64,000 nucleotides of DNA from Botryllus schlosseri (lineage: Eukaryota): positions 23,686,001-23,750,000 of the forward strand of contig CM119372.1 in assembly GCA_051294905.1 (NCBI GenBank), read 5' to 3'. The notes under the pieces are model-generated. The model ran no database searches, was not told where the DNA came from, and saw nothing but the letters and a program-made list of their open reading frames with translations. Position numbers and translations under genes: made by a program. Below are positions 9,211-61,926 of this stretch, piece by piece (position 1 is the first letter of the stretch; the number at the start of each line of letters is the position of its first letter).

Positions 9211-9336
9211 CCGACACTGCTCTTGAAAATGTCTTCATAGCGCGGTATCACAGAAATGACTGCGAGCATAATTGAAATCGCCCACGTCGTCAGAATTGCT
9301 ATAATCGTACCACCAATGTTAGGGGTAGCGAATGGC
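9211..9336 (-). CDS. Exon: ICL2-TM4
   Basis: tgacag|GCCATTC...TGTCGG|gtaag; (R)PFATPNIGGTIIAILTTWAISIMLAVISVIP, with the TM4 Trp. Confidence 0.88.
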
Positions 9337-12300
9337 CTGTCACAAAGGGCAACTCTGTTGGCTACAAACAATGTTGTAGTCTGAATATCAGAAGTAAAAT
9401 GTTTTAACCCCCTGCTCTCGACATGCCTAATACAATTCAAGCGCAATAGATGGTACTATGTTTTTACTGGACGCCCACCTCGCTATTGAACGCAGTCTAT
9501 AAAATGCGATCAAAACCATCGTGAAAACCGATTGCTCCGATCCAATGAGCAATATAACTCCTAACATAGAGCACGCGGTGCTACTCCGCCATTGTCGATC
9601 CACCATGCAGTACCTGCCATCCACTTCAGACGTCTTTAAACATATTGCTAATGCGTAAATCTAGAAATTTATAGTTGATAAATTGTTGAAAATTCCTGAT
9701 TTTACGTACATCACTTACGCCGACAAGAAAATCGGACACCGCCAAGCTCATTATCAAAATGTTGAAGAGTTTGTTGTGATCAGACGCCGTTTTCTTTCTT
9801 CCCGGTCCTTCACGTCGTCTTATGCAACGAAAAGTCAGTATTACCACTGTGGTGCATCCACTGATTGCAGCGATACCTATACGACATCAAAGTTGCATAA
9901 GGGAAATATAAAACACGCACGAAGATATCTTGGATGGATTTAGAATACGCATAAATGCTCAATTCGCGAAACTCACTGATTATCCAGACGATGACGAGAA
10001 TTGTTTTGCTTGTAATCAATTTTTCTTCGTCGGAAAAAGCGCTCTCAATGCAGCCGAGCTGGCATTCGTCAGAACCAGATTGACAATCCTGAACTCCATC
10101 GCACACCTAAACCAGAAAGGAAGGACATATTTATTTTTAAGCCAAGCCAAATGGTACTGCTGTTGATTCGTGCGATGTACCATCAATAAAGTGTATCATA
10201 TTTCGTCCGATTGTTTCGTGAAGTCGACAAATCAGCAATCTATAGGGCTGGGCACAATGATTCGAGTACTCGAATCTGAATCGAGTCATTGTTTTAATGA
10301 TTCGATTCGAGTAGCAAAGACGATTTTTCCGAGTACTGAAATTATACATTTCTCGCTACTGAAAGTTATTTTATCGACGAGAATTATGGTTTTGAGTGCA
10401 ATGAAAGTGGTAGGGTCGAAGAAATACCAAAGTATCTTTGATGTGATGGATAACAGGCATTATATTCTTTGCGGTGGCACAAAACGTACGTATTTGAATT
10501 TAGACACATTACAATTCGTTGTGACGTCATAATGAGTGATACTCGAATAATCGACTCGACTCGAAGCATAATACGTGATTCAGAATCGAATCACTCAGGT
10601 ACTCAATTTTGCACAGGCCAAGAGTCATCTACTACCATTTGTCTCCGTATGTCAGAAGAGGTGCTAATTCCTTTCAAGTCAGTTAACTCGCACCTTACAT
10701 TCAAAATGAAATATTCGACACAAAGACGATAACTTAGTGAATGAATTTTCAATTTTTAGACAAATCATTGGGAGTTGGGCTTGGGGGCCTTATTTTCTGC
10801 AGCGAAGGCCTTCCTAGTAGGGATTGTACGAACCAAAAGGTTGTGGCTCGCGTGAACACGAACGTTTAGGTTCGTTGTGAGCACGAAGGCGGTGAAGTAG
10901 CCAAGTAATTGTTTCATTTACAGCCGGAATAGTGTGATGGTTCAGGCATAGCCTAGTTCTCGATTATTAAAGGGGAACGGCGCTCTAAATGTGATGTAGG
11001 GGAGATGAGGTACCGATGGATCACTGGGACCCAAAATACCTGAAAAATTCTCTATTTTAATTCTATAATTGCACTCCGTGAATTTGTCTACTATTGCATG
11101 CTAGCTGAATCTTTCCTCACATACAAAAAATTTCCACGTGCGCGAGTTATTGGATCTCTGACAGATGTTTTTTGTTTTTTGGGGTGTAAAATAAATTTGG
11201 ATCGACGTATACATTTTTCTTTGTAACCTTCAACAAGAACAAACCAGCAATCATTTTTAGTGTGATATGTAGGGTTTGTATCAGGCTATATAATGACACA
11301 TATTCTTTCATTCAATACCTTCCTTGAGTGGAATTTTTTTTCGATTTATTTATAAAACTCAGAGGGTGGGGACGGACGATACAATAGCCAAAATCGAGCA
11401 AAATAGTTGCACTAACTAATCATGCAACAACTGAAACATGCTTACATACAGAAACTCTTTATGTAATAATTGCTTGTGATGTTCTATCGCTATAACGAGG
11501 TATCTGGAAGTCCAAATGTCGTTCAACGAGCAATATGTATGTAACCTCAAAGTTATAAGTTCCTGCATATATCGAAACGTTATTTTATGGCAACAGTTCA
11601 GTTAATACTAATTATATTTTTTGACGGTGGCGACCATGCATTCTTCTTTGGCATGCTGTAGGTCAGATTATATTACACAGCAAGAAAGGATGTAATATCT
11701 GACTTTTTGAGAGTTTGTTTCATAGGTCCCAGGGTCGTGTGCCTCGGACGCACCGGGTGGGGACCGATGATACGTTCGAGCAACAAATTTTAAACGTTCA
11801 TAATTTTTTTTTTTAAATACCGATATTCATTTATATATGCACGATAGGTAGAGCTTGTATCAAAGTGTTGAGCCAGCAGAAGATCTGCTGTTATCGGCTG
11901 AACATTTTGGGGCCAGAGGTCATTTTCCAATTTTTGATCCGTCGGTACCACATCTCCCCTACTATCAAATCATAGTTGGAGGTGTGAAAACATTTTGGCA
12001 GTAACCATTTTACTCAGAAAGACACCGTTTTCGAACTGCAGCTGAAAATTTTTCACTATTTCACTCTACATATCTCTATGGTATTGTGGTAACTCGTCAT
12101 CACTGCTTAACTCGGTGCGAAATTATAGAACGCATTTCTTTACTACTGTATTTTAGCGACGCGATCAAGCCAGAGCAAGAACGGTGTCTTACGAAACACG
12201 GTGGTTTAGGTACGGCAAGTAGGCGTACGGTGTTGGCGACCAACGGATGACGTTGGGCCAGGTATATTAGCTAGTGAAACTTGTTGCCGGTACCAGTACA

Positions 12301-15300
12301 AACCTCTTTTCAGCCGTCGTTGTGTTACGTCGTAGAGTAGGATAGTCTACGGCTACTTGCCGCAACTAAACCGCCGTTGTGGTTTTCGTAAGATATAGAT
12401 CCTACGAAAAAATGGTTTACAATTATCGAAAATTTCTTCCCTTTTTTGACTGCGTCGAGAGAATGCAGATGTGAAGAAATGACTGATCGAAATTTCGCAA
12501 AGAAGCGATGACGTGTGACCTCGATACCACAGATGTAGCCAGATTTGAATGACACTTTTCGTGGAAATCGCTGCAATTCTAATACGGCGACTTTCTCAGG
12601 AAAATGGCTACTGCCATATGATTTGAACACGTTCAGTCATAATTTCTTCTGTTGTCCTATTTTCTAGCTGTTAAGAACTCAACCGGAATCAATTCCTAGA
12701 GTAATCGCCTATATATTTCAATCTCCTACTAATAAGTAGCTGTGACATATCGGAGGATATCGGGTGCAATGGAATAACCATAATAACCAAAAAAGCCACC
12801 CTACCGCATTTTCGTGGATGTATTCCAAGATACCGGCATCGTCACAGTTGAATAAAGAGCAATTGCTTTCATCGGCGCCATTTGGGCAATCCTAAATTTG
12901 ACATCACTCATTTCGACAAATATTACAGTCAGGAAATATCCGTGCAATACGTACCCCGCGTCGATCGCAATGCTTTTCCATTGGAATATTCGGCAAGGGA
13001 TGGTTTGTACAATAAAAACTAAACAAGCATACAAATCATTTGTAATAGTCATGATAGTTTATAGGTTTTTACCCAGGGGTCCGTCAACCCCTCGGGGGTA
13101 CGAAGCACCAAATTAGGGGGTACCAGACGCATTGTGGAATCATAAGCTATATAGAGCCCAAATTTATTTCGCAAACCAACAAAAAGTGGTATATTTTCTG
13201 GACAGATTTATTCAACTCGAAAATTTTCTACGCGCCTGGCGCGACTCCATGTAAATGAACTTGTTCATTTTAATATAGAGACCATCTCCCAAAATATTAA
13301 TAAGAATAATACAATTAAACAGACGCATAATTGAAGAAATGAGTTAAACCGTCTTTGCAATTACGATGGAACGGCATATTACTATAGTATCGCTTAAGGG
13401 ACTCGGTAGGGTATAGGCCCTGTAACCTGCTGGAGTGCTGGTGCATGGTTATGTTATTGGGCACCAGTATTTCGGCGCCGGATATAAATCCCGCCACATG
13501 ACACAACATGTAGTAATGCATTTTGGGTTGCATTTAAAACAAAAATTAATTACAAACAAACATGTTTAAAACATGGCCCTTGTACAAAACATGTTTTCAT
13601 TGTGTTTTTTTTATGTTCTTTTTAGCCATGCCGTCAAAATCATTGTGGATTGTTACGTTACGATCACTAAAGACGATGTAGCATACAGTGAGATAGGACA
13701 TAAGATGACAAAAATATGCTTTTAGCTAGATTTACGATACTAACATCTACACTCTAAATTCGAATGCGTGCAGAGGAACGCAAACTTACATGCCAAATCC
13801 GGTTTTTTTTTAACTACCACACAACGTGCTGGAGTCGATGTGTGCCTGGCTATCCTGTGTTTAGTAGTGGTATGTTCATGTTGACTGGTGCAGAGCTAGA
13901 AATTAATACCAGCCATCCATGAATTTTTACTCAGCTTAGGCTCAAAAAAGATTTTATTGCAGCGAAAGATCAATACAGAACATTCATTTGCAGACGAAAA
14001 TGTGTGAATTTCTAGCTTGCACAATTGAAAAACTTAAGCTTATCCAAATAGAAATAAGAACTACAGCTACAAAGTTATCATAAATTAGATTCTAATTAGA
14101 GCAAAGAAACGTTTCACTAATTGGTGTAGAATTAGAATTATAGCGACACAGTTGTTTTTGCAAATTAGAATCTAATTAGAGAAAAAAAGCATTTCACAAA
14201 TTGGTGTGGAAATAGAATTATAGCGACACAGTTGCAACCACAAATTACATTTGAATCAGAGCAAAGAAACATTTCACAAATTGGGATAGAGGTAGAATCA
14301 TAGCGATACAGTAAGATTCTAATTCAAGCAAAAAACATTTCAAAAATTGGAGTAGAATTACAATCCTAGCGACACGGTTGTTATCACAAATTAGATTCTA
14401 ATTAGAGCAAAGAAACATTTCACAAATTGGTATGTGATTAGAATTATAGCGACCAGTTGCAGCCACAAATTACATTTGAATCAAAGCAAAGAAGCATTTC
14501 AAAAATTGGAGTAGAATTACAATTATAGCAACACAGTTGTTTTCACAAATTAGATTCTAATTAGTGCAAAAAAATATTTCCCAAATTGGAGTAGAGTTAG
14601 AATCATAGCGACACAGTTCTTATCACTAATTAGATTCTAATTTCCGCAAAAATATTTCCCAAATTGGAGTAGAATTAGAATCATAGCGACACAGTTGTTA
14701 TCACAAATTAGATTCTAATTAAAGCAAAAAACATTTCAAAAATTGGAGTAGAATTACAATCCTAGCGACACGGTTGTTATCACAAATTAAATTCTAATTA
14801 GAGCAAAGAAACATTTCACAAATTGGTAGGTGATTAGAATTATAGCGACCAGTTGCAGCCACAAATTACATTTGAATCAAAGCAAAGAAGCATTTCAAAA
14901 ATTGGAGTAGAATTACAATTATAGCAACACAGTTGTTTTCACAAATTAGATTCTAATTAGTGCAAAAAAATATTTCCCAAATTGGAGTAGAGTTAGAATC
15001 ATAGCGACACAGTTCTTATCACAAATTAGATTCTAATTTCCGCAAAAATATTTCCCAAATTGGAGTAGAATTAGAATTATAGCGACACAGTTGTTATCAC
15101 AAATTAGATTCTAATTACAGCAAAAAACATTTCAAAAATTGGAGAAGAATTACAATCCTAGCGACACGGTTGTTATCACAAATTAGATTCTAATTAGAGC
15201 AAAGAAACATTTCACAAATTGGTATGTGATTAGAATTATAGCGACCAGTTGCAGCCACAAATTACATTTGAATCAAAGCAAAGAAGCATTTCAAAAATTG

Positions 15301-18300
15301 GGAGTAGAATTACAATTATAGCAACACAGTTGTTTTCACAAATTAGATTCTAATTAGTGCAAAAAAATATTTCCCAAATTGGAGTAGAATTAAAGTCATA
15401 GCGACACAGTTGTTAACATTTGAAAAATTGGAGTAGAATCAGAATAACTACTGCAGTATATTTTCTGAATTAGACTTAGAATCCAATTAGAGGTAGTTTT
15501 TATTTCAAATTAGAGTAGAATTAGAAATATAGCTATACGTTAGTGGTTTTCTAAATTAGATTCGATTGAGAGCAAAGAAACATTTCACAAATTAGAGTAG
15601 CATCAGAATTTATAGCTACACAGCTTTTTCCAAACTAGAGTAGAATTAGATTTGTAGCTCTTTTTTATTTCGAAATTAGAGTGGGATCAGAATTATAGCA
15701 ACACTTTTTTTCAAATTATAGAGTAGAAGTAGAACTATAGCTACAATGTTTTTCCAAATTAGAGTACAATTAGAATTATAGGTTCAGTTGTTTTCACAAA
15801 TTAGATTCGAATGAGAGAGACGAAGCACTTCACGAATTAAAGTAGAATTATAATTATAGCTAGTTTTTTTTTCAAAATTAGAGTATAATCAGAATTTTAG
15901 CTACACATTTTATTTTCACTCTAATTAGACAACTAGAGTAGTACTAGAATTGTATAGTTGTCCAAGTCAGCAAACGAAATAAAAATCATTACTGAGATTT
16001 CTAGAATCTGCTCATAAAACAGAGAAGCTTGTTGGATTGAAACCCAAATTTTTGTATCCAATCAGGACATACTGTAAAATTGACAGTATCTGGAAAACTT
16101 TTGGATATGGTCACAAACATAATAACACGCGAGAAGATCCAGCACCATCTCAAATGGTTTCGCTTTATTGTGAGACGATCCCTTTATGCGGATGCCATTC
16201 GCCACGATCCATGACTGCAGGTCACCATTTTCATGGTACGCTAGTACGAGATGTCGAGGACTCAGCTTTGTGGCCGTTAATTGGACTGAATGGGCCTGGA
16301 ATTGAAAGAAATATGTTAAGTAAAATTATATTGCCAATAATCCATGTGTGAATCGAAAGCACAAGATTTAGATTATGTAGAATTGCCTTTATGGGACTTC
16401 TGCATAATGCATATTGAATAAAAATAGAGCTGAATAGGTCAATATAGGTTTTTGCCAATATGGTTTAACAAGCTTAACTCATGGAAACAAGTGATAGCAA
16501 ATTCTGTCGTCACGACATGCTGTCTAGTCGCTGACATGTATGGGTTTTTCCACATAATCATAAGTTTACTAACCTTTAATGATCCATTCAGATTTGATCA
16601 GTATACCATCATACAGGTTCCTTTTGGAACGGCACAAGCATTATGTTCACATTCACTGATTCTATGCACTATATCCATGGTAGCCATCCTCATGGACTCG
16701 AAGTCAGGAAAACCAAAAATTACATTAGCAGCAGAAATGATTTTCCGTGGTGTGGGACGAAAACGAATTTACACCAGCTCATTCTAACTTAGATTTATAG
16801 CCTTATCAAAAATAATCATGTAATTGAAAAGCATTTAATAATCATTTATTTTTGGAGGCCTTCTTTCAGTTTGAGTGTTTATTGCACCGTCATAACGTAA
16901 ACAGCGTCAATCAAAACATAGGCCTACAATATTTTCAGCACCCAAAAACAAAATGAGGCACACGTCTGAGCTCAACAGACCCCGAATTAGAACACATGTT
17001 TGTGTCGCAACTTGGAAATTAACAGACCCCGAATTAGAACCAACTCAACATGCGCGCATGTTAAGCCATAAAATTTTCAAACAACTAGCACTAGCAGTAC
17101 TTTTGTGACGGTCTGTTAAGTTCAAACTTGTGCCAGATTGTGGCATGCAAAACGTTCAAGGTGTTATGGAAAACGACGAACAATGTTTGCCGAAAAATCA
17201 GGACAAGAGTAGAAATCAGTACAAATCTGACAAATCAGGACGTTATGGTACATCTAGGTTCATTGTTCACACAGTTCCAGGTTAAGCAAGCAGCAAATCC
17301 TACAACTCACCTGATAAGCGTTATCGCCCTCAAATCCTGTTGTGATTCTCTCTTCAGTTACTGCATTTCGTAACTCCCTCCCTCAGGAGCATAACCGCAG
17401 CGGCTTGTTTTCCCTACAAATAAATATCAAGTAGAAGATTTGGTTGAAGGACATTCCACTTATTGCATTCCGGTTGATATGAAGGCAAGAGTTCTGACAC
17501 AACAATATTTAATAAATTCATTCTAGAATAGTTGAATAATACTAACCTCTTCATCTGTCTCTAGCTCTGCTCCAAATATTTCGTCAGGAGTAGTAAGTAT
17601 TTCGCTTCGACACTCCTCGGAACGAACACTTGAAACCCCGCTCTGATCTATTACAAAGGCAAAGTGTTACTATAAAAGCAGCTAGTGAGCTAAGCATGCA
17701 CATTGCACACACTTCTATGTGTTATATAGAGGGAACTTGATATGAATATAATAAGATTTATTTCGCTGGATAATATAAACAATAATTATTATAATAGGTT
17801 CATGAATAAAATATCATGTTTTCAACTAATGAAAATGTCGGGCATCCCTAAAAGACGGAGAAGCGGAGGCAGCGGAGACAGCGGAGGCAGCGGAGAACGG
17901 ACCCTAAAACGCGGAAACAGCGGAGACAGCGGAGAGAGCCAAAAATGCCGATTCCTAAAAGACGGAGTTAGCGGAGGAAGCGGAGAGCGGAGCTTTCGGT
18001 CATTAACCTTTATAGACACGCGCGACATAGCGGACGGATACTGAAAGCGGAGTTCGGGACCCAGCGAAATGGACATAGCGGACGGTTATATAATATAGAA
18101 AGCGCAGATCAGGGCGTATCGGAAGATGTTTCGAAGCAGTGGAGAATAACGGAGAAGTCAGCCATGCAAGTTAAAGACCAATTGGGCGACTGATTGCCCG
18201 TAGATGAGATGACATAACGGACGGATACTGAAAGCGGAGTTCGGGGCGTATCGGAAGATGTTTCGAAGCAGTGGAGAATAACGGAGAAGTCAGCCATGCT

Positions 18301-33300: not shown

Positions 33301-33415
33301 AGCGACACGTTCATCCACATCCATAAAGTCACTGTACTGCGACCTGTCGCTCCATTTAAATTTGACCCTTTGACCGTGACTGAGTTTCCGCCGTTACCGA
33401 GAGATGTGAAGCGTG

Positions 33416-33456
<41 letters not shown>

Positions 33457-36400: not shown

Positions 36401-36640
36401 ATCTGTAAGAATTATGAACAAGTTAGGATTCCATAATCTGTTTCGATTCGGATGTGAGGATTTATATGTAAAATTGTGACGTAAATCGCTATTGAATCGC
36501 AGATCGCGTAATCGCAGGTGGATGAATGGTCTTGAATTTGTAATGTGTACTGTATTTTGTGTGACCTTACGTAAAAGGTCTTATCGTATCTCAATCGTCA
36601 AAGCATCTCGATGGTACTAGCGAACATAAATCTGATCCCC

Positions 36641-36674
<34 letters not shown>

Positions 36675-51600: not shown

Positions 51601-54600
51601 TTGATGAACATAGTTTTTAATTGACATTTAGCGTCCAGCCTAGTCATTTCTATCTAGCATCTCATCTTGAAGTTATTCTGGAATAGTGCTTATGTATGTA
51701 TATCACAGGTGAAAATGGATTTCGTGGCGAGGTTTCAATCCATTCATTGGGTCAAATTAGGAAAAAATTTCCGAAATTTCTATTTCAAACGACCCCAACA
51801 AAATGTCTCTAACAGCAATATGTTTGTATCAGTGGGCTATTGGCAATTTGGCAATTATATTGAGTAGGGTTGCATTTCAAACAAACCATGATTAAAAAAA
51901 ACTTTGTTTAAAACAGTGTTTCAAACAAATGCCTTTTCGAAAAGAACTAAATTGTGTAAATACGTCCGAAAAACCATGTAGTATGAGCATATATACGGAC
52001 AATTTGCACCCAAAATAGTCGACGTATACGATGTGGGGTGGCTGGAACCCTCGAGATCGTCGTCGGTTGAAAAGTTTTTGCTCGTAGATATAGATCATTG
52101 GTACGGAATGGGTGTTCTGATGATGATGACCATCGACCGTGAAAATGCTGCATAGCGATGTAGTCCTGGTTAAAGATATTTTTGGTGTGTTTATGACAGT
52201 TATCGGAAGCCCTTGTCTTCGTAGGAGCCATATTTACCCTATATTTTCAATTGTCAATGTGAATCCACGGTTACGTCACAATTAAATAATAAAACATGTT
52301 TGTTTTAAATGGATTTTTGTTTTAAATGCAGCCCTGAATATGAGTTTGCACAGTAGGATATTTCATCTCGGACGACCGCACTAATGATGTGAGTCCTGAA
52401 GTTTTAGCAAACATGAAGCTGAACTGTCTCATGCTTTCCCTAATATAAAAATTACGAATTAGGTTATCAATCATTTTCCAAATCTAGAGGTTTCGAGGAC
52501 CCCCTGAAAAAGCTCTGCGGACCGTTAGGGGTACGCAGGACCCCGGTTGAGAACCACTGCAATAGATTCATGTGCTGCTATTTTGATGCTGTGTGGCCTG
52601 TACGTGTTTCCGGTACTCGCACAAATCATTCTTTCGTCCTCATATAGGCAGGGATCACCGAGACGCATGCGTAAGACTGCGGGGGCTCAACGGAACTTGC
52701 GTCGCGGACCTTCAGAGCACTCGCGGGCCGGTACAGTCCAATGACCCCAAAACGTTACCACAAAGTCTATATGCCCTTGGTCTTGACTTGAATACTCAAG
52801 CCTTTATAAATAAGAATGTATTACGGTATAGCACGGGCCATAGGGTTCTATTCTATTAACACCATTATTCGCAAACATTGCAATAGGCAAAAGTACGATG
52901 ATTGGCCAGTTGAATAGTTATATAAACTTCTAAAACAGGGGCTTTAGCGACGACATACGCTGGCATATTTCTATGATCGGCTTGTTTAATTCGTTATCTG
53001 ACAATAGTCCTGTGTATGAATTGTGAGGAATATAACCGATTTAACCGTAAGCGCAGACGTTGAAATTTGGTTCTTTATTATTATATCGCGATTTAGGTTT
53101 CGCTGGATGATGAGAAGCTGTTAAGTCATAAGCAAAAAAGGAGTGTGATCAAAGATATTTACCTTAATTAGTTGACAGCGCCAATTAATCAGAGATGATC
53201 AGTAACGAAGTAGGGGAGATGTGGTACCGATGGATCAAAAATTGGAAAATGATCGCTGGCCCCAAAATGTTCAGCCGAAAACAGCAGATCTTTTGCTGGC
53301 TCAGCACTTTGATACAAGCTCTACCTATCGCGCACATATACATGAATATCCGTCTTTTCAAAAAATATTTATGGACGTTCAAAATTTGTTGCTCGAACGT
53401 ATCATCGGTCCCCAACCGGTGGGTCCAATGGCACACGACCCGGGGACCTATGACACATATACCCTAAATACCTCAGATGTGTCAACTTTTCTTGCTCAGT
53501 ATTATAATCTAAGCGACAGCAAGCCAAAGAAGAATGTTTGGTCGCAACCGTCAAAAAATAGAATAAATATTAACTCAAATGTTGTCATAAAATCACGTTT
53601 CGATTTAAGCTCAAAATTATAAATTTTAGGGTACATGCATATTGCCCGAAAATCGACATTGTGACTTCCAAATACCTCGTTATAGCGATGAAACATCATA
53701 TGCAATTATTACATAAAGATTTTCTGTACGTAGGCATGTTTCATTTGTTTCATGATTAGTATGCTTGATTATTTTGCTTGATTTGGCTATTGTATCATCG
53801 GTCCCCACCCTACGAATTTTATACATGATTGAAAAATATTCCACTCAAGGAAGGTACTGAAAAAAATAATAGGTGCTATTATATAGCATGATACAAGCCC
53901 TACACCTCACAATAAAAATGATTGCTGATTTGTTCGTGTTGAAGGTTACAAAGAAAAATGTATTTGTCGATCTAAATTTAGTTTACACCCCCCAAAACAA
54001 AAAACATCTGTGAGAGACGCCATAGCTCGCGCACGTCAATTTTTTTTGTATGTGAGGAAAGATTTGCCATCATGCAATGGTAGACAAATTCACGGAGTGT
54101 AATCATGGAATTATCATAGAGAATTTTCAAAGTATTTTCGGTCCCAGTGATCCATCGGTACCACATCTCCCCTACTTCTCCTTTTTTTGCAGTACTCGCG
54201 TAGTTTTCCACTACTTGGGCACTTACTCAAGTACATCTAATTTACTGCTACTTCTACCTCTACTTCATAATATTTTGTGATCTACTTACTTACTTTTCGC
54301 TATTTTAAGTTTTTCAAGTAAAACTAGTTTAATCCTCCAATCAGTAAGATAGCCTGAGAAATTTCGGGGCTGTTTCGACGGAGTATCAACATTTAATTTT
54401 CATGAAAGTTGATTAAACCCCAGAATTTTCGTCGCGCTTCACGCACAGTGGATATGGAGTGACCAATATGATTTCACGAAAGTATTGGTGAATATAATTT
54501 AGGTAGTGAGTCTGGAAAAGAGGACTCTAACTTTTTTTCTAGCTTCAGACCTGTTTTAGCATACCACCTTTGAAACTTTCTGGATTAAAGATATGAAATA

Positions 54601-57600
54601 CATTTTCCGATTTCAGAAGTAGTATTTTTCTCTTTCAATTCCCAGTATCATACTTTGAGTTATAAATATTTTCAGTTTTTTTGTCTGGAGAACATACATG
54701 TTGAAGTATAAAAGCAAGTGAAGTAATGGCTTCAATTTTCGGAAATAAAGCTACACGATATGACATTTTTACGATCCACCATACTTTTTTATTAACGTTT
54801 GCTAGTCGCGCAAAGTGTTTACACCGTATCCGATGCAACTTCTCCGTATTGCTCTGAGAATGAGGTTCGGGCCTTACAATATGAGGGAGGGCGCCATACC
54901 ATGATATTTACTAAAACGGGCTGCTCGAGTAAACAGAGGACTAGTATCGCATTTCCATATCAATACTATCATTTTCATTCCATGATGCGCATGAATGCCC
55001 ATGCTGTTGAAAATTTGATACCTCCTGGTATACATCAATATGAACCAAGCTCTCACCGAGCGAGATAGTGTAATGGTGATGCGTCCGGCTACTTGATCGG
55101 TAGGTCGTGGGTTCGATCCCCGGCCGGATCAGACCAAAGTCTCGAATACTGGTATCCGCAGCTATCCTGCTATAGGCGCTCAGCATCCACGGATAGCATG
55201 GAGGAGAAAAAACGGGGGTGCAGACTAGATGACATTACGGTCGTATCGCATCTCCGTCGTCAAAAGCATCTCAATGGTGCAGGCAAAACCTAATACCCCA
55301 CTTCTCTCTCTGCACCTTTCGCATAGCCCAAGTCGCAACTTTTGACAATCAATGCGATCTAATTACGATTGTTTTCACAACTACTTACTTACTTCAGTAG
55401 ATTTAAAGTCAGTCAATTCTACGTCAAGTAGTTTTAGGTTGCTCATAGAGGAAGTAGTTCCACTCGTACATGGGTACATTTTTTCGTCGTTACTTCCACT
55501 TCTACTTGAGTGGCTTTCTTGACTACTTTGACCATCTCTGCAATTAGTTCAGCGTGGACCGTATCACACGTAGCTTTGCCACTTTGCCAGCCAGCCAGCG
55601 TTACGAGCTCCAGCTTGGCGCATTGTTGCGTCAGAATCACTTTGGTACGTGCAGGTGCAAGAGAGACTCACAATGAGTTGATTGACATCACTGAGGGTGA
55701 AGCGTATAGATCAGGGGTGGGCAATTATTTTCCTCTGCGGGCCAAATGAAAAGCCGACAATATGTTGGCGGGCCAAATCAGATATTTTAGCTGTATTCTC
55801 CGATGTATTGATTTTATTTCTAAATTGAAAGCAGTGAATTACACTAAATGGTGCTCAGTGGATGTGTTGATATTGAGGAATGAGGGAGTGACTGCTAATT
55901 AATAGTAAAATATTTATTCACCGTCATATTTCGAAACAAAGTCATTCATGATACATTTTGAACTTTCTTTAAACCCCTATCCACGTTTTTCTATCAATAC
56001 ATTAAAATGTATTTGGGGTGGCCGAAACAGCACTTCGTCAGCCCCCCTTAAAAAAGAGTTGGTCTTGGGCCCTCATAGAGTTATAAACCAAAGTTGCACC
56101 CAGACCAAACCTCCATCGGGATGTACGTTTTTAACACTACTTCTGAGCGATTTTTTTTGTATCGCCAAAGCGTACTAAATTGAAGACCTGCACGATTCCA
56201 AATTGGTATTTCTTTACTGCCAAATATAGCCTATGAACAATTGGACATCGTGGTTTTCGATCAACATAAGGGCAGTCCTTTTCTTGCAGAACTTCATACG
56301 TCTTGGTGCGTCGTGCGTCGTCACGGTAATGCCCAAAATGCCCAATTCTATAATCCATTAATCGCTAAATCGCGCGTAGGGCGAGAAAAATTTGAAAAAA
56401 GTAGCATAAATTTTCAAATAAATACTCTATAATTTATACTCAATCACGAAATAATTTTGAGCCCACTTCGAGCTCGCCCGAGCCCAATTTGGGGGTTTGG
56501 GGTGCGGCAGTTACGGTCGGTCCTTGGGATACTATAAAGCTTATCGTCTTAGTCGCTGGATTCCGAGCAGTGTGTAGCTGGGTGAATTGGCATTGTTTTT
56601 GAGCCAAGTTTGCAATTCTTCCGAAATTCGCCGTCCCTTGGCCGAGTGCATGTATTCGTGTTTTTATCACAGAACCGACTTTAATTATACTCCTTAAACA
56701 CGGCGACCTGCTCGGCTCTAACTACTAAAAGGACTGGTTTACCCCTGACACCAGTAAACAAATATTTATTCCTCCGAACATTCTTTGAATTTCAAATTTC
56801 CGCTTTCTTTTTTTTTGACATCCATTATGGGTGATGATGACCCATAGAAATCACGGGCACTGATCGAATTGTTTTACGAATTAGGGACTTGGAAACGCAT
56901 CACGTAATAATTTGAAACACAGACCGTGTAATGCGTAATGTGGCAATGGCAATAGAGAGAGTTTCGGTGACTTTGTGTGACTATAATTGTAACGGCACAA
57001 TTTGCTGCATTATATGACTTTATTTCGAATCTGGATTACGCTTGTGAGGTACGTATATGGGTTGCGTAATCACGCCATGTTAATGAACAGGCTTGCTAGT
57101 AAACGGATTTGCGGTTCAGTATATACATCCTAAGGTTTTATCCACGCAGCAACATTAAAAAGTAAGTTCTATATTTTGAATTTCAAGCAGCCTTTCGCGG
57201 GTAACACAGAATAGCTTCGCGGGCCGCATTTGGCCCGCGAAGCTATTCTGTGCGGCCCGCGAAAGGTTGCTTGGAATTCAAAACATGAAACTTGCTTTTT
57301 GAATGATTAAAACCATAGGCTGTATCAACTGAACAGGAAATTAGTTTACATTGAAGTCTGTTCATTAATATGCCACGCATACACTGCCTACGTACGGCGC
57401 ATGCATAATCCAGATTCAAAATAAAGGCAATGTAGCAAAGTATGAGTAGCAATTGAAGTCACAAGAAATCACTCTTTCCATATAGTTTAGTTCAAACCTT
57501 CTTCGTTGCCATTGTCACATTACGCATTATACGGTATGTGTTTCAAATTCTTACGTGATACGTTTCCGAAGTCGGTCTTATGACAAAACCACGATATCCT

Positions 57601-60600
57601 CCGTCGAGGGTGGGCGAAGTTCAGAAAATACTGCAAGCTTCGCTCAACATCAAGGCTATTTAAGCTGCAAACTACTCGGAAGGCAGCAACCAAGATAATA
57701 AGCGTTGTAATGTTGCATATACATTTCGGTGAAGATGGTTATCGAACTGGGGGCGTGAAAGCATCATAAGGGGGCGTGAAGCCAAAGTTTAATGCAAATT
57801 GTTTTCGCGCACCACGCGATTTACCGCCAGCTTATAGTTATTGCCCTGTGTATTGTCCGACTTTATTATTTCAGAATTCTCTTATCAACAGCCATAACCT
57901 CCCATGCCATCAAACTATCCGTTGGGATTGCTAGCATTCTGGTTGCACTTTTTAATATTTTGTGATATCATGATAAGGGAGACGCGAAATCTTTCACTAT
58001 CATAAAGGGAGGCGTGCCTGAAAAAGTTTGAGAACCACTGTTTTAGAGTCTTAATAGAAGAAGGTGGATAGGGATTTAAAGAGAGTTACAATGTATCATG
58101 TTTAACATTGTTTCGAATCAGGACGGCAAATAGATATTTTTTCAATTAACCGTCACTTTCTCATTACCTAACATAAACACATTCACAGAGCAGCATTTGT
58201 TAACAATGTAATTCAGAAATATAATAAAAATACGCTGCAGAACACGGTGAAAATTTTTCCCTCGACCCGCCAACGTGTTTTCTAATTTTCATTCGGCCCG
58301 CGGAGGAAAATAATTGCCCACCCCAACTGTAACGGCTAGCATGAAAGATTACTGAAAGTCAGAAACAGGTACTAAACTGCGTTGTGTGTAATAGCATCAA
58401 TCCGCATCGAAACATAAAATATGCAATAGCATAGTATTCCATGCACGTATATTACAAATTGTAAATTGACAAATCCTTCAATTCAGACCGCCAAGCTTGT
58501 ATTCTTGAACTACCCTCATATCGCGCACGTCAAATCATCTGGCGAGCCACACGTTGCACGTGTGGTGGGGCTGCCGACCCCTGATCTGATAAAATGGATT
58601 ATATGATGACCGAAATAACGGCTTGAATCTATATCTAGATTATAAAGTAAATTATGCGATAATGAGAGTCATCTAAGCATCATATGAGCGACTGGTATAT
58701 GAACACGTGACAACAGCTACGCGGTTGTGCGAGTGCGACACAAGACCTCGCGTTTGATTCGCATTTTTAGTGCAAAGCTGCGAATTAGAGTGTATATAGT
58801 ATCGTTGCAGTATTCTTCCAAGATTTGTTGGTCCTGCCTTCCCAAATTAACGTAATATCTAAATGCCTTACCACATAAATTCTTTTCCAGTTCGTGGAGC
58901 GCAGTCGCAATCTTTGTATAGTTCTCTATTAATATCACATGTTCGCTAGCAGGCTGCGATGCAAGCATGTTCGCGAAGTCCTTTGATATGCTGTTGCCCA
59001 CGGCTATCACAAATATTTCAATTCCAGACTCCTGAAATAAAGGCGTTTACCAATTTCTATGTTATGATGAGTTGACGACAACCGCATTTAAGCATGTGAC
59101 ACTTGATCCTGAGCATATGACTTTATAACCCGACATTAGGGTTGTTTAAAATCAACTTATTTTTCCGGGTTCCAGTGATTCACTGATTAAATTGTCAGGT
59201 TACCCTTAAACGCTGTACACCAGATTTGGTTCAATTGTAACAAGTATAAGTCGCCGCAGAGCAAATTTAAATGTTCAATTTATTATGATTTTCTGTCAAT
59301 CTCATGAAATGTCTGAGTTGTCTGTCTTCAAAAACGATACAAAACAAATTTGACTCAATTACAACCCGCAGAAATAAAGTTATTGCAATTGAAGTTCTGG
59401 ATTTGCAAAAATAGCATTACGGTGGGTAATCCCAGGATTATTATTGAAAAACTCGAATAACTCCGCTTCTATTGGTTGGAATCGACTGCAGCAATATCTA
59501 TATGATCGATTACGCATCACTATTTCCCGCATATAGGAGCAATTTTGTCGTGAAGTTGCCGAGAGTCCCACAAGATCGTCGTACAAGTGACACTTTTAGA
59601 GCAGTGGTTCCCAAAGTGGGCGACAAGGGTGCGAGAAAAACAAATGGGAATAAGGAGGCGGGAGTCACTTATATTTGAATAACTGTATTGGTAAATTTGT
59701 TCTCCAGTATACATTCGTGTTTCGAATTGGTTGCGAAGGGTGTTTAACACGAAGCTGTCATGAGAAATAAATCGAAAATTTTTTTCTTGAATTTATTGCT
59801 TCCCGTCATATGGAGCGAGTGGGTATTTTATATAAATCTTGATGCAATGTTCTTTTGACAAATTAGAGCTTGTTAAAAACATGAGGGGACCCGAGTGGAT
59901 GAAATGGTCACGGGAAAGGAAGACTCCAAATAACAAATAAAACAAATTTCTAGTATATAATCAGACAAAATGCAAAATGACTACACACTTGGAAATAACC
60001 AGTCACACTTTACAACTAGGGTTGGGACTTCGGGATCAAATTTCAAATCCCGGGATCGGGATTTCCCGGGATTGGCAAAGTAGCAAAATGCACATACAAG
60101 CTACACAGACAACATTTATTCCTTGTAATTTTGACGCATAAACATGCTCCCGTGAATACGAATGAAACACAGCGATCGAAAGCCACCCGGATAATGAGCG
60201 TTTAAATTCATGTATCGCTTGCTTCGTGTAGGAGTTGATTTGTCCAACGTGATCGAAAAACGTCCATCATTCCGTTACATTGCCATAAGCTCTTCTTTCA
60301 AACACTTGCGGATTTTTTTTGTGCTCGATCACGAAGTTACGAACCCGTTTGTGACATCTTGGCAAGGTATAGCCGTCAGCCTTGAAGGCCCAACGAATTT
60401 GCTCACTTTGGAGCAATTTGTTTAAATGCTAGCCCGTCCACAGCTGTTAACTGGCTAGGAAGTTCATCGAACCGAGGATTATGCGATTTATAAAAGGAAT
60501 GATATTTTTTTGACTTGCGCGATTGAGTCATGCGGGTTGATTTAATTACTATCATGTGTACGGACCTTAAATGCGTTACCAGTCCCTTTGTGCTATATCA

Positions 60601-61926
60601 GTGGTTCCCAACCTTCTTCGTCTCATCGCCCCCTTATCAACCTCGACACACATTTTCGCCCCCCATCCCCTATCGCCCCCATATTTACGGATCCGAAGAA
60701 GAGAACATATAAACGGAAATTCATTCACCTAACTACTTTGATCGCCAAAGAATTGAGTAAATAAAAAGGTAATTTTTTCGAGTAGGTGCTCCAAAAACCG
60801 GTTTCCGCCGTTAAGTTTCAGTCAACTTTGGCGTCGTATGCAGAATAAGCCACTGCTACGACCCGTAGACTACGGCGGAAATAATTGTGCAGTTCATTTT
60901 ATGCCATAGTTGGTTTTATTATCACATAATTGTGAATTGTTTTAGACAATCAGTCGTGTTTGTAACACTTAGGCTTACCATATTTTGGAAATCTAAAGAG
61001 AGGACACTTTTTCAGAAATTTCAGACATGCAAAACTTGAGAAGAATTCTCAAAAACCGGTATATTTTTCCCACTTTGTGATCGGTTGAATAAAATAAAAA
61101 AAAAAAGGTCATCTTTTCGCTTCGAGCTAAAATCACCGTTTTTCACTCCGAAATACCCGCCGGAGCTTCACTTCTGCGCTAATTTGCGGCTTATCACTCG
61201 CAATTTGCTCTAGATCTGACCTAAATTTTCAAAAAAGAGGACAAAAGGGCGTCCTCCGAGGACACTTTCAAAAAAGTCAAAAAAGAGGACAAATCCTCTT
61301 AAAAGAGGACGTATGGTAAGCCTAGTAACACTGCTTCATTACCAAAATAAGAGACATGACGCTACGTAAGCCTTGGTAGATGCTGTTTACAAATCCCGGG
61401 ATTTCATTGCGATTAATCCCGGGATCGGGATTGCTTCAAATCCCGGGATCCCGGGATCGGGATTTCCCGGGGTCCCAACGCTATTTACAACTCGTCCGTG
61501 TAGTCTAAATGTGTACCTTGAAAATTTTTTATATGTTATATCCCTAAAGCAAAATTGCTTTTTCAAATAACAAAATTCATCATGAGGTTGGAAACCACTT
61601 CGGATTAGCCCTAACCCTGACCCAGCCCAACCCCAAACGTATCACGCATTCTCAAGCGCCACATGTCATTACATCACATGCTCGTATGTCCAGTGTCAAA
61701 CGATCATCACAACGTGACACAGCACATTAGCCTGTTGCATTTGAAACCTAGCCGCCATTTCGAAAACCTACCTTGACTTTTCTTTGTGCTACCGTGGTGT
61801 TGTCTGTCGATTGGCCATCAGTAACAATAACTGCCACCTTCGTCACGTCTGCGTCCATTCGGGCCCCTTTATTTGCGGTGAATGCCACAGTGTAGAGAAA
61901 CTCAAGTGCAGCGCCAGTTTGCGTTA
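9211..61926 (-). CDS. Multi-exon gene, partial at both ends: vWA + 5 LDLa-like modules + class A (LGR/RXFP-like) 7TM receptor, TM1-TM4 visible
   Basis: Exons 5'->3': 61772-61926, 58872-59031, 48950-48985, 43753-43911, 43605-43698, 42212-42258, 41268-41318, 41072-41195, 12955-13018, 12805-12891, 9977-10106, 9719-9876, 9479-9660, 9211-9336. All have AG/GT boundaries, phases match at every junction, 1573 nt, no stop codon. Confidence 0.8.
9479..9660 (-). CDS. Exon: TM2-ECL1-TM3
   Basis: ttctag|ATTTAC...AGCGAG|gtggg; IYALAICLK...WRSSTACSMLGVILLIGSEQSVFTMVLIAFYRL, with LGR-type W....C and SE.SV motifs. Confidence 0.92.
9719..9876 (-). CDS. Exon: TM1-ICL1-TM2
   Basis: gtatag|GTATCG...GTCGGC|gtaag; ends ...NILIMSLAVSDFLVG, the class A TM2 LAxxD motif in LGR style. 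Confidence 0.92.
9977..10106 (-). CDS. Exon: last LDLa module, hinge and start of TM1
   Basis: gtttag|GTGTGC...AATCA|gtgag; VCDGVQDCQSGSDECQLGCIESAFSDEEKLITSKTILVIVWII. Confidence 0.9.
10243..10621. mobile_element. Degenerate hAT-type MITE with TCGA-rich subterminal repeats
   Basis: TAGGGCTGGGCACAA...TTTTGCACAGGCCAA termini; repeated GATTCGA/ACTCGA motifs; TSD eroded. Confidence 0.55.
10999..11959. mobile_element. TA-TSD (Tc1/mariner-type) MITE, copy 1
   Basis: TIR GGGGAGATGAGGTACCGATGGATCA / TGATCCGTCGGTACCACATCTCCCC; flanked by gTA...TAc; colinear inverted homologue at 53213-54172. Confidence 0.82.
12805..12891 (-). CDS. Exon: LDLa modules 4/5
   Basis: atttag|GATTGC...AATGCG|gtagg; DCPNGADESNCSLFNCDDAGILEYIHENA. 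Confidence 0.9.
12955..13018 (-). CDS. Exon: LDLa module 4, first half
   Basis: gtttag|TTTTTATTGT...CGCGGG|gtacg; FYCTNHPLPNIPMEKHCDRRG; its phase-2 start matches the exon ending at 41072. Confidence 0.8.
14040..15970. repeat. Satellite array, ~79-80-bp monomer with 396-bp (5-mer) higher-order repeat
   Basis: Monomer AATTAGATTCTAATTAGAGCAAAGAAACATTTCACAAATTGGAGTAGAATTAGAATTATAGCGACACAGTTG...; the variant CAATCCTAGCGACACGG occurs at 14361, 14757 and 15153. Confidence 0.92.
16013..17647 (-). pseudogene. Decayed intron-containing ORF resembling transposon accessory (SAMD3-like, CACTA/EnSpm-associated) proteins
   Basis: Exon-like blocks 17547-17647, 17311-17413, about 16535-16783 and 16013-16295 with AG/GT sites, stops and a frameshift; the last reads ...VLDLLACYYVCD / YPKVFQILSILQYVL; family call from remembered motif similarity only. 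Confidence 0.35.
17840..21733 (+). repeat. Left arm of the MULE: ~185-bp terminal segment plus modular ~132-bp tandem array, interrupted by a hAT insertion
   Basis: TAACGGACGGATACTG recurs at 21001, 21133 and 21265 (period 132); GCGGAG micro-repeats at 17860-17995; reverse complement of 30025-32956. Confidence 0.92.
18937..20935. mobile_element. Non-autonomous hAT-type element inserted in the left MULE arm
   Basis: TIR CAGTGGCGGCTCGT / ACGAGCCGCCACTG; perfect 8-bp TSD CGGAGAAG (18929-18936, 20936-20943); internal degenerate ~198-bp repeats (19380, 19580, 19777); related fragment near 38280-38600. Confidence 0.9.
22375..25416 (-). CDS. 1013-aa MULE DDE transposase fused to SWIM Zn finger, Ulp1/C48 cysteine protease and PHD finger
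   Basis: Intronless ORF. D1 in LSYDTTFSLGDFYVS, D2 in FVTDREKGI, CxxH in YCLNHI, E in TNNISESMN. SWIM CTCPSTTICYHILA. Basic RKSGRKRPRR. Ulp1 motifs WLDDETI, NHWIL, MDSF, QQENTFDCG. PHD-like C..C...MCVKCRRWFHKSC...FIC....C. Confidence 0.93.
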   Translation of the reverse strand: MLQLGNRSLSYARAREILENPENVWDKPAVLPKGGEGYLYRSPCQSGRSDFQCDQYRFIHKGKCRDVKGEVCKRYYELKDPNGKLRETLPGFKRHVYSLILEEERNTESGTIYLVHYMGDTTLHRDSSHGNAIKKKDSVFVHTSRACLDEIKKDDKNTPKQTYVDLQAKGMRQSDQSRMPTDRPRDVKQCENMKYANRQSLRISKDTVYNAVEMSVHTGDFVRKIEIIPDITIRMAHSDMLDETRNILKISMKNTELPQVLSYDTTFSLGDFYVSILVCRNVLMKGDPIFPVAFMVHEKKFMTNHEQMFRDILHCLGMDKCSNIPFVTDREKGITKPLHDYFPDLPKFYCLNHILNDAKRWLREHSFKTHEVSILLGDIRKLVLSDGEDQFNDKYRTLANGWTGKFREYFDKHLKGDISRNTCRFRTKYFSAFSESPPTNNISESMNNVLKAASGRKEMTLDAIILWMHNLQTNYLHDFRRAECGHGEYQLKTEFSYMRKKLEHIKFPKMLTLDDIISEINNDQNVTKFFRSNNKLNQRFSQRAMARWCGINNMVGFSSTNGVFTVASMTQRQVHCVRYFPKPSSCTCPSTTICYHILAVAMSLKDNSTQKAVPCNLSQLLKNRKGRTRKSGRKRPRRVDFDYTVNSTPAHHSTPRKQQPKQPLLHSDLSMISDEQMSEINEETAPLDLTTDSVKLPALNDYPWLSSSKENKDPQHVIRQCLKPEQWLDDETIERAIEAFCTEKPLVLFFTSYRYQWSEQDHNVPSLCRFARKHQAANKDFFIFLVHVPNHWILTVVNLSTKTILVMDSFISPNRTRYEGIFRNSFKIVSACFRVANVRCTIDEWQFFLCRDVKQQENTFDCGIHVIANAYCVTNNLPLARDFPSGKCRVWVDYLAGIRERSTENQLPTGRRPTDETQSESGCILGDWNAISESDITYAELADSSSAIGVMNKSKWDNCDSSLCKGSKDQDQQIMCVKCRRWFHKSCLVDEKADEMTYFICYRKNCLAAKIQP
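25856..26949. mobile_element. hAT (Charlie-like) MITE inside the MULE
   Basis: TIR CAGGGGCGGGCAAC / GTTGCCCACCCCTG; TSD GCACAAAC on both sides; contains a piece (about 26455-26777) that is the reverse complement of the repeat at 720-856 + 1444-1620. Confidence 0.88.
27113..27275 (+). repeat. Direct tandem duplication, period 85 bp
   Basis: GAACTCGCTCGTTGCATGCGCATTGTGCATGCACACTAGGGTTGTTCAGAATTGACCGGCTTTCAAAAAG at 27121 and 27206. Confidence 0.9.
29294..30024 (+). mobile_element. Truncated hAT MITE (AAGTA/TACT-repeat family) abutting the right MULE arm
   Basis: Starts CAGAGGTGATCAAAGTAG; colinear with the reverse complement of about 54220-55540; the other terminus is missing. Confidence 0.75.
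30025..32956 (-). repeat. Right arm of the MULE: modular tandem array with 786-bp higher-order spacing
   Basis: Same modules as the left arm, inverted; equivalent positions recur at 30362, 31148, 31934 and 32720 (786 bp apart). Confidence 0.92.
33418..33453 (+). repeat. (GA)n microsatellite
   Basis: Direct reading. Confidence 0.95.
36580..36673 (+). mobile_element. 5'-truncated SINE 3' end with (CT)n(AT)n tail
   Basis: CGTCAAAGCATCTCGATGGT matches CGTCAAAAGCATCTCAATGGT of the SINE at 55055-55311. Confidence 0.6.
37322..38021. mobile_element. MITE with ~100-bp imperfect TIRs
   Basis: TATACTTGAGCACTACGAAATGTACAAGTACTTTA...(37336-37430) is inverted at 37918-38010; exact ends uncertain. Confidence 0.65.
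40112..40796. mobile_element. hAT MITE with AATTAG subterminal repeats
   Basis: TIR CAGACTTGGAC / GTCCAAGTCTG; perfect TSD CCTGAGAG. Confidence 0.88.
41072..41195 (-). CDS. Exon: LDLa-like module 3
   Basis: ttacag|AAGCA...TGCAGG|gtaat; ATACDGVPECLNFSSEECECEQKAGFCDYF... Confidence 0.85.
41268..41318 (-). CDS. Exon: start of LDLa-like module 3 (an alternative in-frame acceptor would start at 41324)
   Basis: attcag|GTTCAG...CACCA|gtacg; SAELPKLEDFTCFNGT. Confidence 0.75.
42212..42258 (-). CDS. Exon: LDLa-like module 2, second half
   Basis: gaacag|ACCGAAC...CGATG|gtggg; PNCHNSEDEINCEND. Confidence 0.85.
42370..43091. mobile_element. hAT (Charlie-like) MITE
   Basis: CAGGGGTGGCCAACC / GGTTGGCTGGCCCTG; TSD GCCTTGAA / GCCTAGAA. 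Confidence 0.8.
43605..43698 (-). CDS. Exon: LDLa-like module 2, first half
   Basis: atgtag|ATCAC...AGCAT|gtggg; HNGNEIKDWPHCLSVDEEYIAFDATMICDS; follows a 54-nt intron. Confidence 0.8.
43753..43911 (-). CDS. Exon: LDLa-like module 1
   Basis: atccag|GTTTC...ATTGG|gtaag; FMDKDCFQCLSNPGIVMPVSTLCDGSFNCPDLTDECLC... Confidence 0.9.
45250..46235 (+). pseudogene. Chapaev3 transposase pseudogene with stops, frameshifts and an internal deletion
   Basis: Fragments QHKLNDLT*ALGLEREISELLAS; EWQISIGSSKRNLN*DILLNGNVLGAVTIAHSVSLRE; LQYHKHDWDWIICV; FPENLGIVSDGQGE; NMLVDSCSSIKRDNP. Confidence 0.78.
46443..47712 (+). mobile_element. Internally deleted hAT (Ac/ZBED-like) element nested in the Chapaev3 copy
   Basis: TIR TAGAGCCCGAC / GTCGGGCTCTA; TSD GTTATGAG; relic SCFAHSLQL (CxxH) joined directly to WNQNEERFPILA...VPSERL (hAT dimerization domain). 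Confidence 0.88.
47997..48904. mobile_element. hAT MITE with GACTT/GACTC subterminal repeats
   Basis: TIR CAGTGTTGGGAT / ATCCCAACACTG; perfect TSD GTACTAAT; fragment of the same family near 36070-36208. Confidence 0.9.
48950..48985 (-). CDS. 36-nt linker micro-exon
   Basis: ttttcag|AGGTCGG...GACCAG|gtaac; (E)VGEGPCNGDRP(G); phase 1-1 fits both neighbours. Confidence 0.6.
51206..52559. mobile_element. hAT (Charlie-like) MITE containing a nested hAT MITE (51865-52336)
   Basis: TIR CAGTGGTTCTCAACC / GGTTGAGAACCACTG; TSD CGATAGAT / CAATAGAT; inner element TAGGGTTGCATTT...AAATGCAGCCCTG. Confidence 0.85.
53213..54172. mobile_element. TA-TSD MITE, copy 2 (inverted relative to 10999-11959)
   Basis: GGGGAGATGTGGTACCGATGGATCA TIRs; removing it restores GAAGTACTTCTC in the host MITE. 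Confidence 0.85.
55055..55311 (+). mobile_element. tRNA-derived SINE
   Basis: Pol III A box TAGTGTAATGG (55066) and B box GGTTCGATCCC (55110), non-tRNA body, (CT)n tail; absent from the paralogous MITE site near 29525. Confidence 0.8.
55712..58326. mobile_element. 2.6-kb imperfect palindrome made of two Charlie-like MITE copies fused tail to tail
   Basis: Outer CAGGGGTGGGCAATTATTTTCCTC / GAGGAAAATAATTGCCCACCCC; inner arms about 56890-57223 and 57232-57570 centred on CTTCGCGGGCC-GCATTT-GGCCCGCGAAG. Confidence 0.72.
58872..59031 (-). CDS. Exon: vWA domain C-terminus
   Basis: tttcag|GAGTCT...TATGTG|gtaag; ESGIEIFVIAVGNSISKDFANMLASQPASEHVILIENYTKIATALHELEKNLC, a typical vWA end (GIEIF.IAVG, IAS.P..HV, terminal Cys). 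Confidence 0.9.
60017..61483. mobile_element. hAT MITE with CCCGGGAT repeats, containing nested elements
   Basis: TAGGGTTGGGAC / GTCCCAACGCTA; perfect TSD TTTACAAC; Charlie-like end at 60599. Confidence 0.87.
60970..61324. mobile_element. hAT (Blackjack-like) MITE
   Basis: TIR TAGGCTTACCATA / TATGGTAAGCCTA; perfect TSD GTAACACT; AGAGGAC subterminal repeats. Confidence 0.9.
61772..61926 (-). CDS. Exon: vWA domain core
   Basis: ttacag|TAACG...GTCAAG|gtagg; TQTGAALEFLYTVAFTANKGARMDADVTKVAVIVTDGQSTDNTTVAQRKVK has the vWA T.TG.AL, GAR and V.IVTDG.S motifs. Confidence 0.9.

Follow-up and report, generated by a model that had tools for sequence, protein, structure and literature searches.

The 64,000-nt window of Botryllus schlosseri DNA analyzed here (CM119372.1, positions 23,686,001–23,750,000; GCA_051294905.1) holds on its minus strand the exons of a receptor body that is supported, by its sequence relationships, as a further member of the known ascidian LDLRR-GPCR family, and upstream of them two exons of a vWA domain. 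Intron phase and homology indicate that the vWA exons are probably spliced onto this LDLRR-type receptor, whether the fusion is intact or not. That the product is a fused and intact vWA–linker–six-LDLa–7TM receptor, with its start and TM5–7 outside the window, is as we weigh it an even call.

The window is about 40% GC and contains many repeats, with introns of 54–142 nt alongside very long ones. Fourteen minus-strand exons were rebuilt, with AG/GT ends throughout, and their in-frame join gives 524 stop-free codons. The 14-exon model of an earlier sequence-only reading of this DNA was reproduced in its outer ends, its named junctions and its phase, but one LDLa exon had been overlooked. The corrected model comprises 15 exons and 560 codons with six LDLa-like modules, and has neither stops nor frameshifts:

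Exon 1, 61772–61926, minus strand: middle part of the vWA domain, phase 1/0, with splice ends (Pfam VWA, E 3.8e-8).
Exon 2, 58872–59031, minus strand: C-terminal part of the vWA domain, phase 0/1 (Pfam VWA, E 2.6e-4; donor score 8.1).
Exon 3, 48950–48985, minus strand: 36-nt linker with the pre-core Cys, phase 1/1, aligning to the Styela pre-core linker.
Exon 4, 43753–43911, minus strand: LDLa-like module 1 (Pfam Ldl_recept_a, E 0.0048; matched by 36 relatives).
Exon 5, 43605–43698, minus strand: first half of module 2, spliced in phase and collinear with Styela module 2.
Exon 6, 42212–42258, minus strand: second half of module 2, with in-phase splice and Styela collinearity.
Exon 7, 41268–41318, minus strand: linker and start of module 3, with in-phase splice and Styela collinearity.
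Exon 8, 41072–41195, minus strand: module 3 (non-canonical) and a Cys-rich tail, from tblastn matches, splice and collinearity.
Exon 9, 36295–36402, minus strand: LDLa-like module 4, 108 nt, phase 2/2, from tblastn and the alignment gap that it fills.
Exon 10, 12955–13018, minus strand: first half of module 5, from splice, tblastn and collinearity.
Exon 11, 12805–12891, minus strand: end of module 5 and start of module 6, from splice and collinearity.
Exon 12, 9977–10106, minus strand: end of module 6, RXFP-type hinge (Leu-Ile) and start of TM1 (Pfam LDLa, E 0.019; matched by 69 relatives).
Exon 13, 9719–9876, minus strand: remainder of TM1 (Gly-Cys, against Gly-Asn in relatives), ICL1, and TM2 with Asp2.50 intact.
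Exon 14, 9479–9660, minus strand: end of TM2, ECL1 (Trp, Cys3.25) and TM3 ending in YRL (157 relatives at E ≤ 0.001).
Exon 15, 9211–9336, minus strand: ICL2 and TM4 (Trp4.50), with a strong phase-2 donor at its end.

The overlooked exon 9 (36402–36295) was detected by tblastn of relatives inside a supposed 28-kb intron, and has good splice ends. Alignments of relatives P0007, P0012, P0022 and P0037 leave a one-module gap exactly at 41072/13018, which the exon fills. Its addition raised the score against 39 of the 50 relatives that span the junction, lowered it against 10 and left one the same; the ten best relatives each gained 12–34 bits. Within 41071–13019, the pattern CDG..C..DE..C has a single occurrence on the minus strand and none on the plus strand; the exon alone has no Pfam match. 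Recovery of exon 9 therefore brings the model to its 15 exons and raises the five LDLa modules first counted to six, and the 41072>13018 splice, proposed as the full-length junction, passes over a real exon. An isoform that skips exon 9 through this junction would remain in frame and is possible. The donor at 41093, a possible alternative, was discounted, since its GT is altered in the DNA run X1.

An HMMER search with exon 14 yielded the 157 relatives noted above, the best 150 of which were used in the tblastn against the window. Those of the relatives that were scanned by Pfam are mostly LDLa plus 7tm_1 proteins, and the closest named relatives are from Styela clava, then Clavelina and Ciona. 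The six LDLa-like modules of the window protein align one-for-one with a six-module Styela core; Pfam itself matched LDLa in two exons, each below the cut-off alone. Because of this collinearity, exons 4–8 and 10–15 can be assigned by homology to one gene despite the 23-kb intron between them. Several genomic fragments among the relatives (P0001–P0004, P0008, P0013 and P0186) appear to carry insertions at the TM2 and/or TM3–TM4 intron points of this gene. No LRR was found in the modeled ectodomain within the window, and module 6, the hinge and the start of TM1 share exon 12, so that the last LDLa does run straight into TM1, as had been proposed. In a quick IQ-TREE analysis of TM1–4 (113 rows, with 17 ids that were near-duplicates or, in one case, a 5,042-aa protein omitted along with short matches), the window protein falls into a 13-row clade with nine labeled Styela proteins (SH-aLRT 97), and LRR-bearing receptors form a separate side (99).

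Core collinearity and the TM1–4 tree thus uphold the assignment to LRR-less LDLa receptors of the ascidian LDLRR-GPCR type. The accompanying term 'ascidian expansion' suits that type but may be too narrow in view of ctenophore-rich LRR-less clusters: two ESM Atlas clusters reached with P0175 as the query combine LDLa and 7tm_1 with no LRR family listed, and are mostly ctenophore among the members with a taxon. Two Pleurobrachia proteins (P0006 and P0015) are also among the relatives, and LRR-less LDLa receptors may not be restricted to ascidians. A word-based protein search with exon 14 returned nothing among 24 candidates, which is weak evidence, and a metagenome locus that matched the exon (L001, 55% GC) was judged a chance hit with no family match.

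D2.50, the ECL1 Trp, C3.25, E3.39, R3.50 and W4.50 are all preserved within TM1–4, as is the hinge pair ahead of them. The hinge Leu-Ile aligns to the Leu-Leu of RXFP1 by way of the Met-Ile of P0009/P0175, and would correspond to Leu402/Leu403 in RXFP1 numbering. The nearest Styela relative has RXFP1 as its best solved-structure match (7tmw, E 6.7e-23); in the ECL2 column of RXFP1 Phe564 it carries Leu, and the corresponding exon of the Botryllus gene lies outside the window. The YRL at the end of TM3, which the sequence-only reading had treated as distinctive, is present but family-typical: position 3.49 is F in 48, Y in 21 and D in 12 of 112 relatives, and R3.50 is found in 109. The SGC of TM1 is present, as claimed, and it is unusual. 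The class A hallmark Asn1.50, kept by 107 of the 112 relatives, is replaced here by Cys, a residue that none of them has at this position, and Cys1.50 may weaken signaling.

The altered residue in TM1 favors a reading in which the fusion is real and the copy is decaying or truncated, with TM5–7 lost or broken or TM1 crippled, as in a birth-and-death family. The absence of TM5–7 from the window points the same way. A TM5–7 profile built from 14 close relatives found nothing in the 9.2 kb downstream of 9211 (best score 6.2 bits), although each of 13 more distant test proteins would be detected, with one or more of its 20-residue pieces reaching 10 bits (43 of 91 pieces in all); the best-scoring stretch, a TM6-like one at 7457–7428 with 6.2 bits, was taken as noise. 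The 15-kb transposon in intron 9 can be counted on the same side, as can the DNA run X1, in which three of the four exon codons that differ (at 41091, 41153, 42252 and 43655–43656, among the 40 of 1,680 differences listed) change the residue. In their own right, these codon changes hint at a fast-changing ectodomain. Against decay, none of the 15 exons is interrupted, their splice ends are canonical and the remaining class A hallmarks are preserved. Moreover, the modeled gene has introns of 9.9 and 23 kb, so that an intron of more than 9.2 kb before TM5 would be unremarkable. TM5–7 either lie beyond position 1 or are lost, and a decaying copy is in our judgment unlikely. Downstream of the last receptor exon, 4979–5579 and 5668–6267 form an inverted duplication of 600 bp, with copies 95.5% alike and 88 nt apart, that is likely a foldback or MITE-type element.

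Intron 9 contains the following transposon:

Mutator-like element, 17840–32956, no strand assigned: about 15.1 kb, in intron 9, with inverted arms and an 8-bp target duplication.

It makes up most of the 23-kb intron. Its 360-nt outer inverted repeats are 99% alike, and its arms consist of 132-bp tandem arrays that are 95–97% alike between arms. An open reading frame of 1018 aa (25431–22378, minus strand) has the order MULE-SWIM-Ulp1 protease-PHD, and the insertion looks recent. A 79-bp satellite of about 14–17 copies, with a higher-order period of 317/396 bp, occupies 14074–15415, with related units at 15583–15906 and 40162–40315. A dispersed repeat of about 970 bp is present in inverted orientation in two introns of the gene (10996–11963 and 53209–54175, 85% alike).

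The two vWA exons are real, as first read: their Pfam matches (E 3.8e-8 and 2.6e-4) cover profile positions 79–123 and 130–170 of 174. Exon 1 opens with a MIDAS-type Thr and also holds the TDG-motif Asp; both align in PDB comparison with their counterparts in integrin alphaL, residues that act as metal ligands in integrin I domains. The best PDB matches of the two exons are collagen VI alpha3 and the I domains of integrins alphaL and alphaM (exon 2 against alphaM, E 0.0014). Exon 2 terminates in a Cys at its strong phase-1 donor. The N-terminal half of the domain, the DxSxS motif and a signal peptide were searched for on the minus strand from 64000 to 59000 and not found, and the DxSxS exon and the gene start are predicted to lie outside the window, past 64000. 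Exon 1 had no match in metagenome scans and, in an ESM Atlas search, met only generic VWA clusters, below 0.9; a word-based protein search with exon 2 gave nothing among 11 candidates, which is again weak evidence.

A possible source of such exons is a complement factor B-like or integrin alpha-like gene that happens to lie next to the receptor. The integrin I domains among the best solved-structure matches are in line with this, as is the CCP-VWA-trypsin composition of factor B proteins given in the available text of PMC11312191. However, the 101 ORFs of at least 30 aa past exon 2 contain no trypsin, FG-GAP, CCP or EGF match, a scan of limited power for short exons. In addition, exon 2 ends in Leu-Cys followed by a phase-1 intron, which is more like matrix-type vWA modules. 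An incidental adjacency of this kind is very improbable.

The end of exon 2 and the start of the receptor are facing loose ends on one strand and in matching phase. The donor of exon 2 is in phase 1 and exons 3 and 4 both begin in phase 1, in agreement with the phase-1 introns that had been described at the vWA/LDLa boundary. Between them, exon 3 is the least certain exon of the model, ranking second by splice score among 11 phase-1/1 candidates. Of 54 core matches, counting redundant isoforms, 49 have a Cys 5–18 residues ahead of the core, and exon 3 supplies one, within EGPC as compared with ECxC or EGYC in relatives. The neighboring, first linker Cys is lost in exon 3 and likewise in Styela P0175, which also has no upstream LDLa. 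In two Styela models, P0151 and P0176, the predicted protein seems to begin within an intron and to enter the coding sequence at the point of exon 3, which suggests a conserved exon start there.

No further LDLa exon was found upstream of the core with a family profile of the pre-core region. Similarly, the 101 ORFs of at least 30 aa on the minus strand of 58871–48930 contain no credible Pfam domain (two weak matches fell below the cut-off), in single-exon scans of low power, in which six genuine receptor exons gave no relevant match by themselves. Because the linker matches the P0175 type and no upstream LDLa or other domain was found, the usual module ahead of the core seems to have been lost, and on sequence grounds the vWA domain is the only recognizable candidate to replace it.

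The relatives offer no comparative support for the fusion, since vWA is absent from every one searched: it occurs in none of the 96 scanned by Pfam (two of them with the top five of eight families listed), none of a set of 24 rows and none of three matching ESM Atlas clusters, and a phmmer search of the vWA sequence against 185 relative proteins gave a best E of 2.7. This is one of the points that speak for two neighboring genes, namely an unrelated vWA protein upstream and an ordinary LDLRR-GPCR whose first exon encodes a signal peptide of its own. Under such an arrangement, the last exon of the vWA gene would be hidden in the repeat-rich interval of 58.8–50 kb, and the first exon of the receptor would be 49631–49559, for example, or one not recognized. 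Precedent exists in the close Styela relatives P0175 and P0012, in which LDLa modules or the core come directly after an initial signal peptide, and 49631–49559 is indeed a signal-like phase-1 candidate, 573 nt upstream of exon 3. The acceptor context of this candidate is weak, however, two Glu lie within or close to its hydrophobic part, and signal-like candidates occur here at the background rate (four on the minus and six on the plus strand, or 10 in 128 kb of both strands). For the vWA gene, a stop-ending exon at 50481–50291 (minus strand) has good splice scores, but its acceptor at 50481 lies within a short tandem repeat inside a dispersed repeat, and no recognizable domain follows the vWA. 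The segment, which begins inside the repeat, encodes small residues and then a hydrophobic tail that is GPI-signal-like by eye; it is probably due to chance, yet would be the best last-exon candidate if the vWA gene were separate. Taken as a whole, the two-gene arrangement is possible but the less probable account, and the fusion first proposed by the sequence-only reading stands as the most likely one, with the splice predicted from phase and homology.

Four runs were mapped to 41000–60990, of which X1 is DNA (its contigs cross introns), X3 is shallow, and X6 and X10 are RNA. In X6 and X10, sampled to about 6% and 13% respectively, the bins of exons 7–8 and the bin with most of exon 2 have depth 0, and the bin of exon 4 does not exceed 0.2. 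Among the 15 of 1,206 read joints listed for this region, a table dominated by repeats, all fall at repeats and none at an exon boundary. In the DNA run X1, the bin 58342–59008, which includes most of vWA exon 2, has a mean depth of 4.7 as compared with 84–157 on unique stretches elsewhere; depth over the LDLa exon region is 84–96, about half that of 48958–53066 (144–158). The drop may reflect a structural polymorphism that affects the vWA exon, or else an artefact of filtering.

Our full reading of the locus, which we put forward tentatively, is that it may encode a rhodopsin-class GPCR, transcribed and intact, that binds its ligand through an integrin-I-like, metal-dependent vWA head carried on a stalk of six LDLa modules, an adhesion or opsonin sensor placed on a relaxin-receptor 7TM in one sea-squirt lineage. 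The role in adhesion or pattern recognition proposed by the sequence-only reading is likewise conjectural. Most likely, a phase-1 vWA module would have replaced the extra N-terminal LDLa repeats that are typical of most relatives. Its MIDAS metal could bind a large extracellular protein of matrix, complement or cell-surface type by contacting an acidic residue of that ligand. In RXFP1, according to the available text of 10.1101/2022.01.22.477343, ECL2 and the hinge residues Leu402/Leu403 form an internal agonist that is restrained by the LRRs, and the 7TM alone signals at 70% of the maximum. Since the LRRs keep RXFP1 in check and their removal leaves it largely active, some other control must operate in a family that lacks them. 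LDLa modules require calcium for their fold and are essential to RXFP activation, as stated in the accessible part of PMC4561518, and a Ca-stabilized LDLa stalk could take the restraining role that the LRRs hold in RXFP1. By analogy with that receptor, ligand binding would release the hinge Leu-Ile pair and ECL2, and thereby turn on the 7TM and the G protein. Since LRRs are absent, the LDLa stalk would be the likeliest restraint, with the vWA head as the likeliest sensor.

If correct, the receptor would constitute a natural experiment in LRR substitutes as the switch for an RXFP-type internal agonist, and would equip a class A receptor with an adhesion domain of integrin or collagen type. The LDLRR-GPCRs are an orphan family; a vWA-headed member would suggest, for the first time in concrete terms, what kind of ligand to expect (large proteins, via a metal site), and would also offer a construct that can be tested. 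Should the vWA belong to a separate gene, the locus would hold an ordinary additional member of the family described in 2008. No vWA-bearing class A or LDLa GPCR was found described in the literature searched, in which coverage of subscription journals was thin; the vWA head, if joined, thus gives an architecture not found among the relatives or the literature searched.

A comparison with known systems places the predicted protein between several receptor and adhesion families. It resembles adhesion GPCRs, by analogy only, in carrying a putative adhesion module on a stalk above a 7TM, but no GAIN domain precedes TM1 and its relatives score as 7tm_1 rather than 7tm_2. To collagen VI and to the I domains of integrins alphaL and alphaM, it is similar in sequence over the C-terminal 55% of the fold and in keeping the MIDAS-type Thr and Asp; it differs from them in that the domain is predicted on a class A GPCR ectodomain, and the DxSxS motif is not seen in the window. 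RXFP1 and RXFP2 (type C1 LGRs) and snail GRL101 (type C2) share with it the 7TM family and the presence of LDLa, and the hinge Leu pair of RXFP1 and RXFP2 is kept as Leu-Ile. In contrast to these receptors, the window protein has no LRR domain between LDLa and TM1, which abut directly. The LRR domain of RXFP1 is its relaxin-binding and autoinhibitory part, and the window receptor is unlikely to bind relaxin. The nearest Styela relative has a much longer ECL2 than RXFP1.

The closest system is that of the LDLRR-GPCRs, defined in Ciona intestinalis by an RXFP-like TM region and LDLa repeats with no LRR (Kamesh et al. 2008, PMC2396169). VWA and Willebrand do not occur in the main text of PMC2396169, and the text of its supplement 3 names only LDLa and LRR. 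The window protein departs from these receptors in its predicted N-terminal vWA, where they have extra LDLa repeats or a bare signal peptide, and in its Cys at 1.50. As far as it is visible, it has the RXFP-like TM region, tandem LDLa modules, no LRR and the corresponding grouping in the tree. Like the receptors of Ciona and Styela clava (XP_077970539.1, P0175; XP_039271686.2, P0007), it shows tandem LDLa abutting an RXFP-like 7TM and F/Y-R-L at the end of TM3, and with its Styela relatives it shares a clade and a collinear six-module core at about 35% identity over 440 aa.
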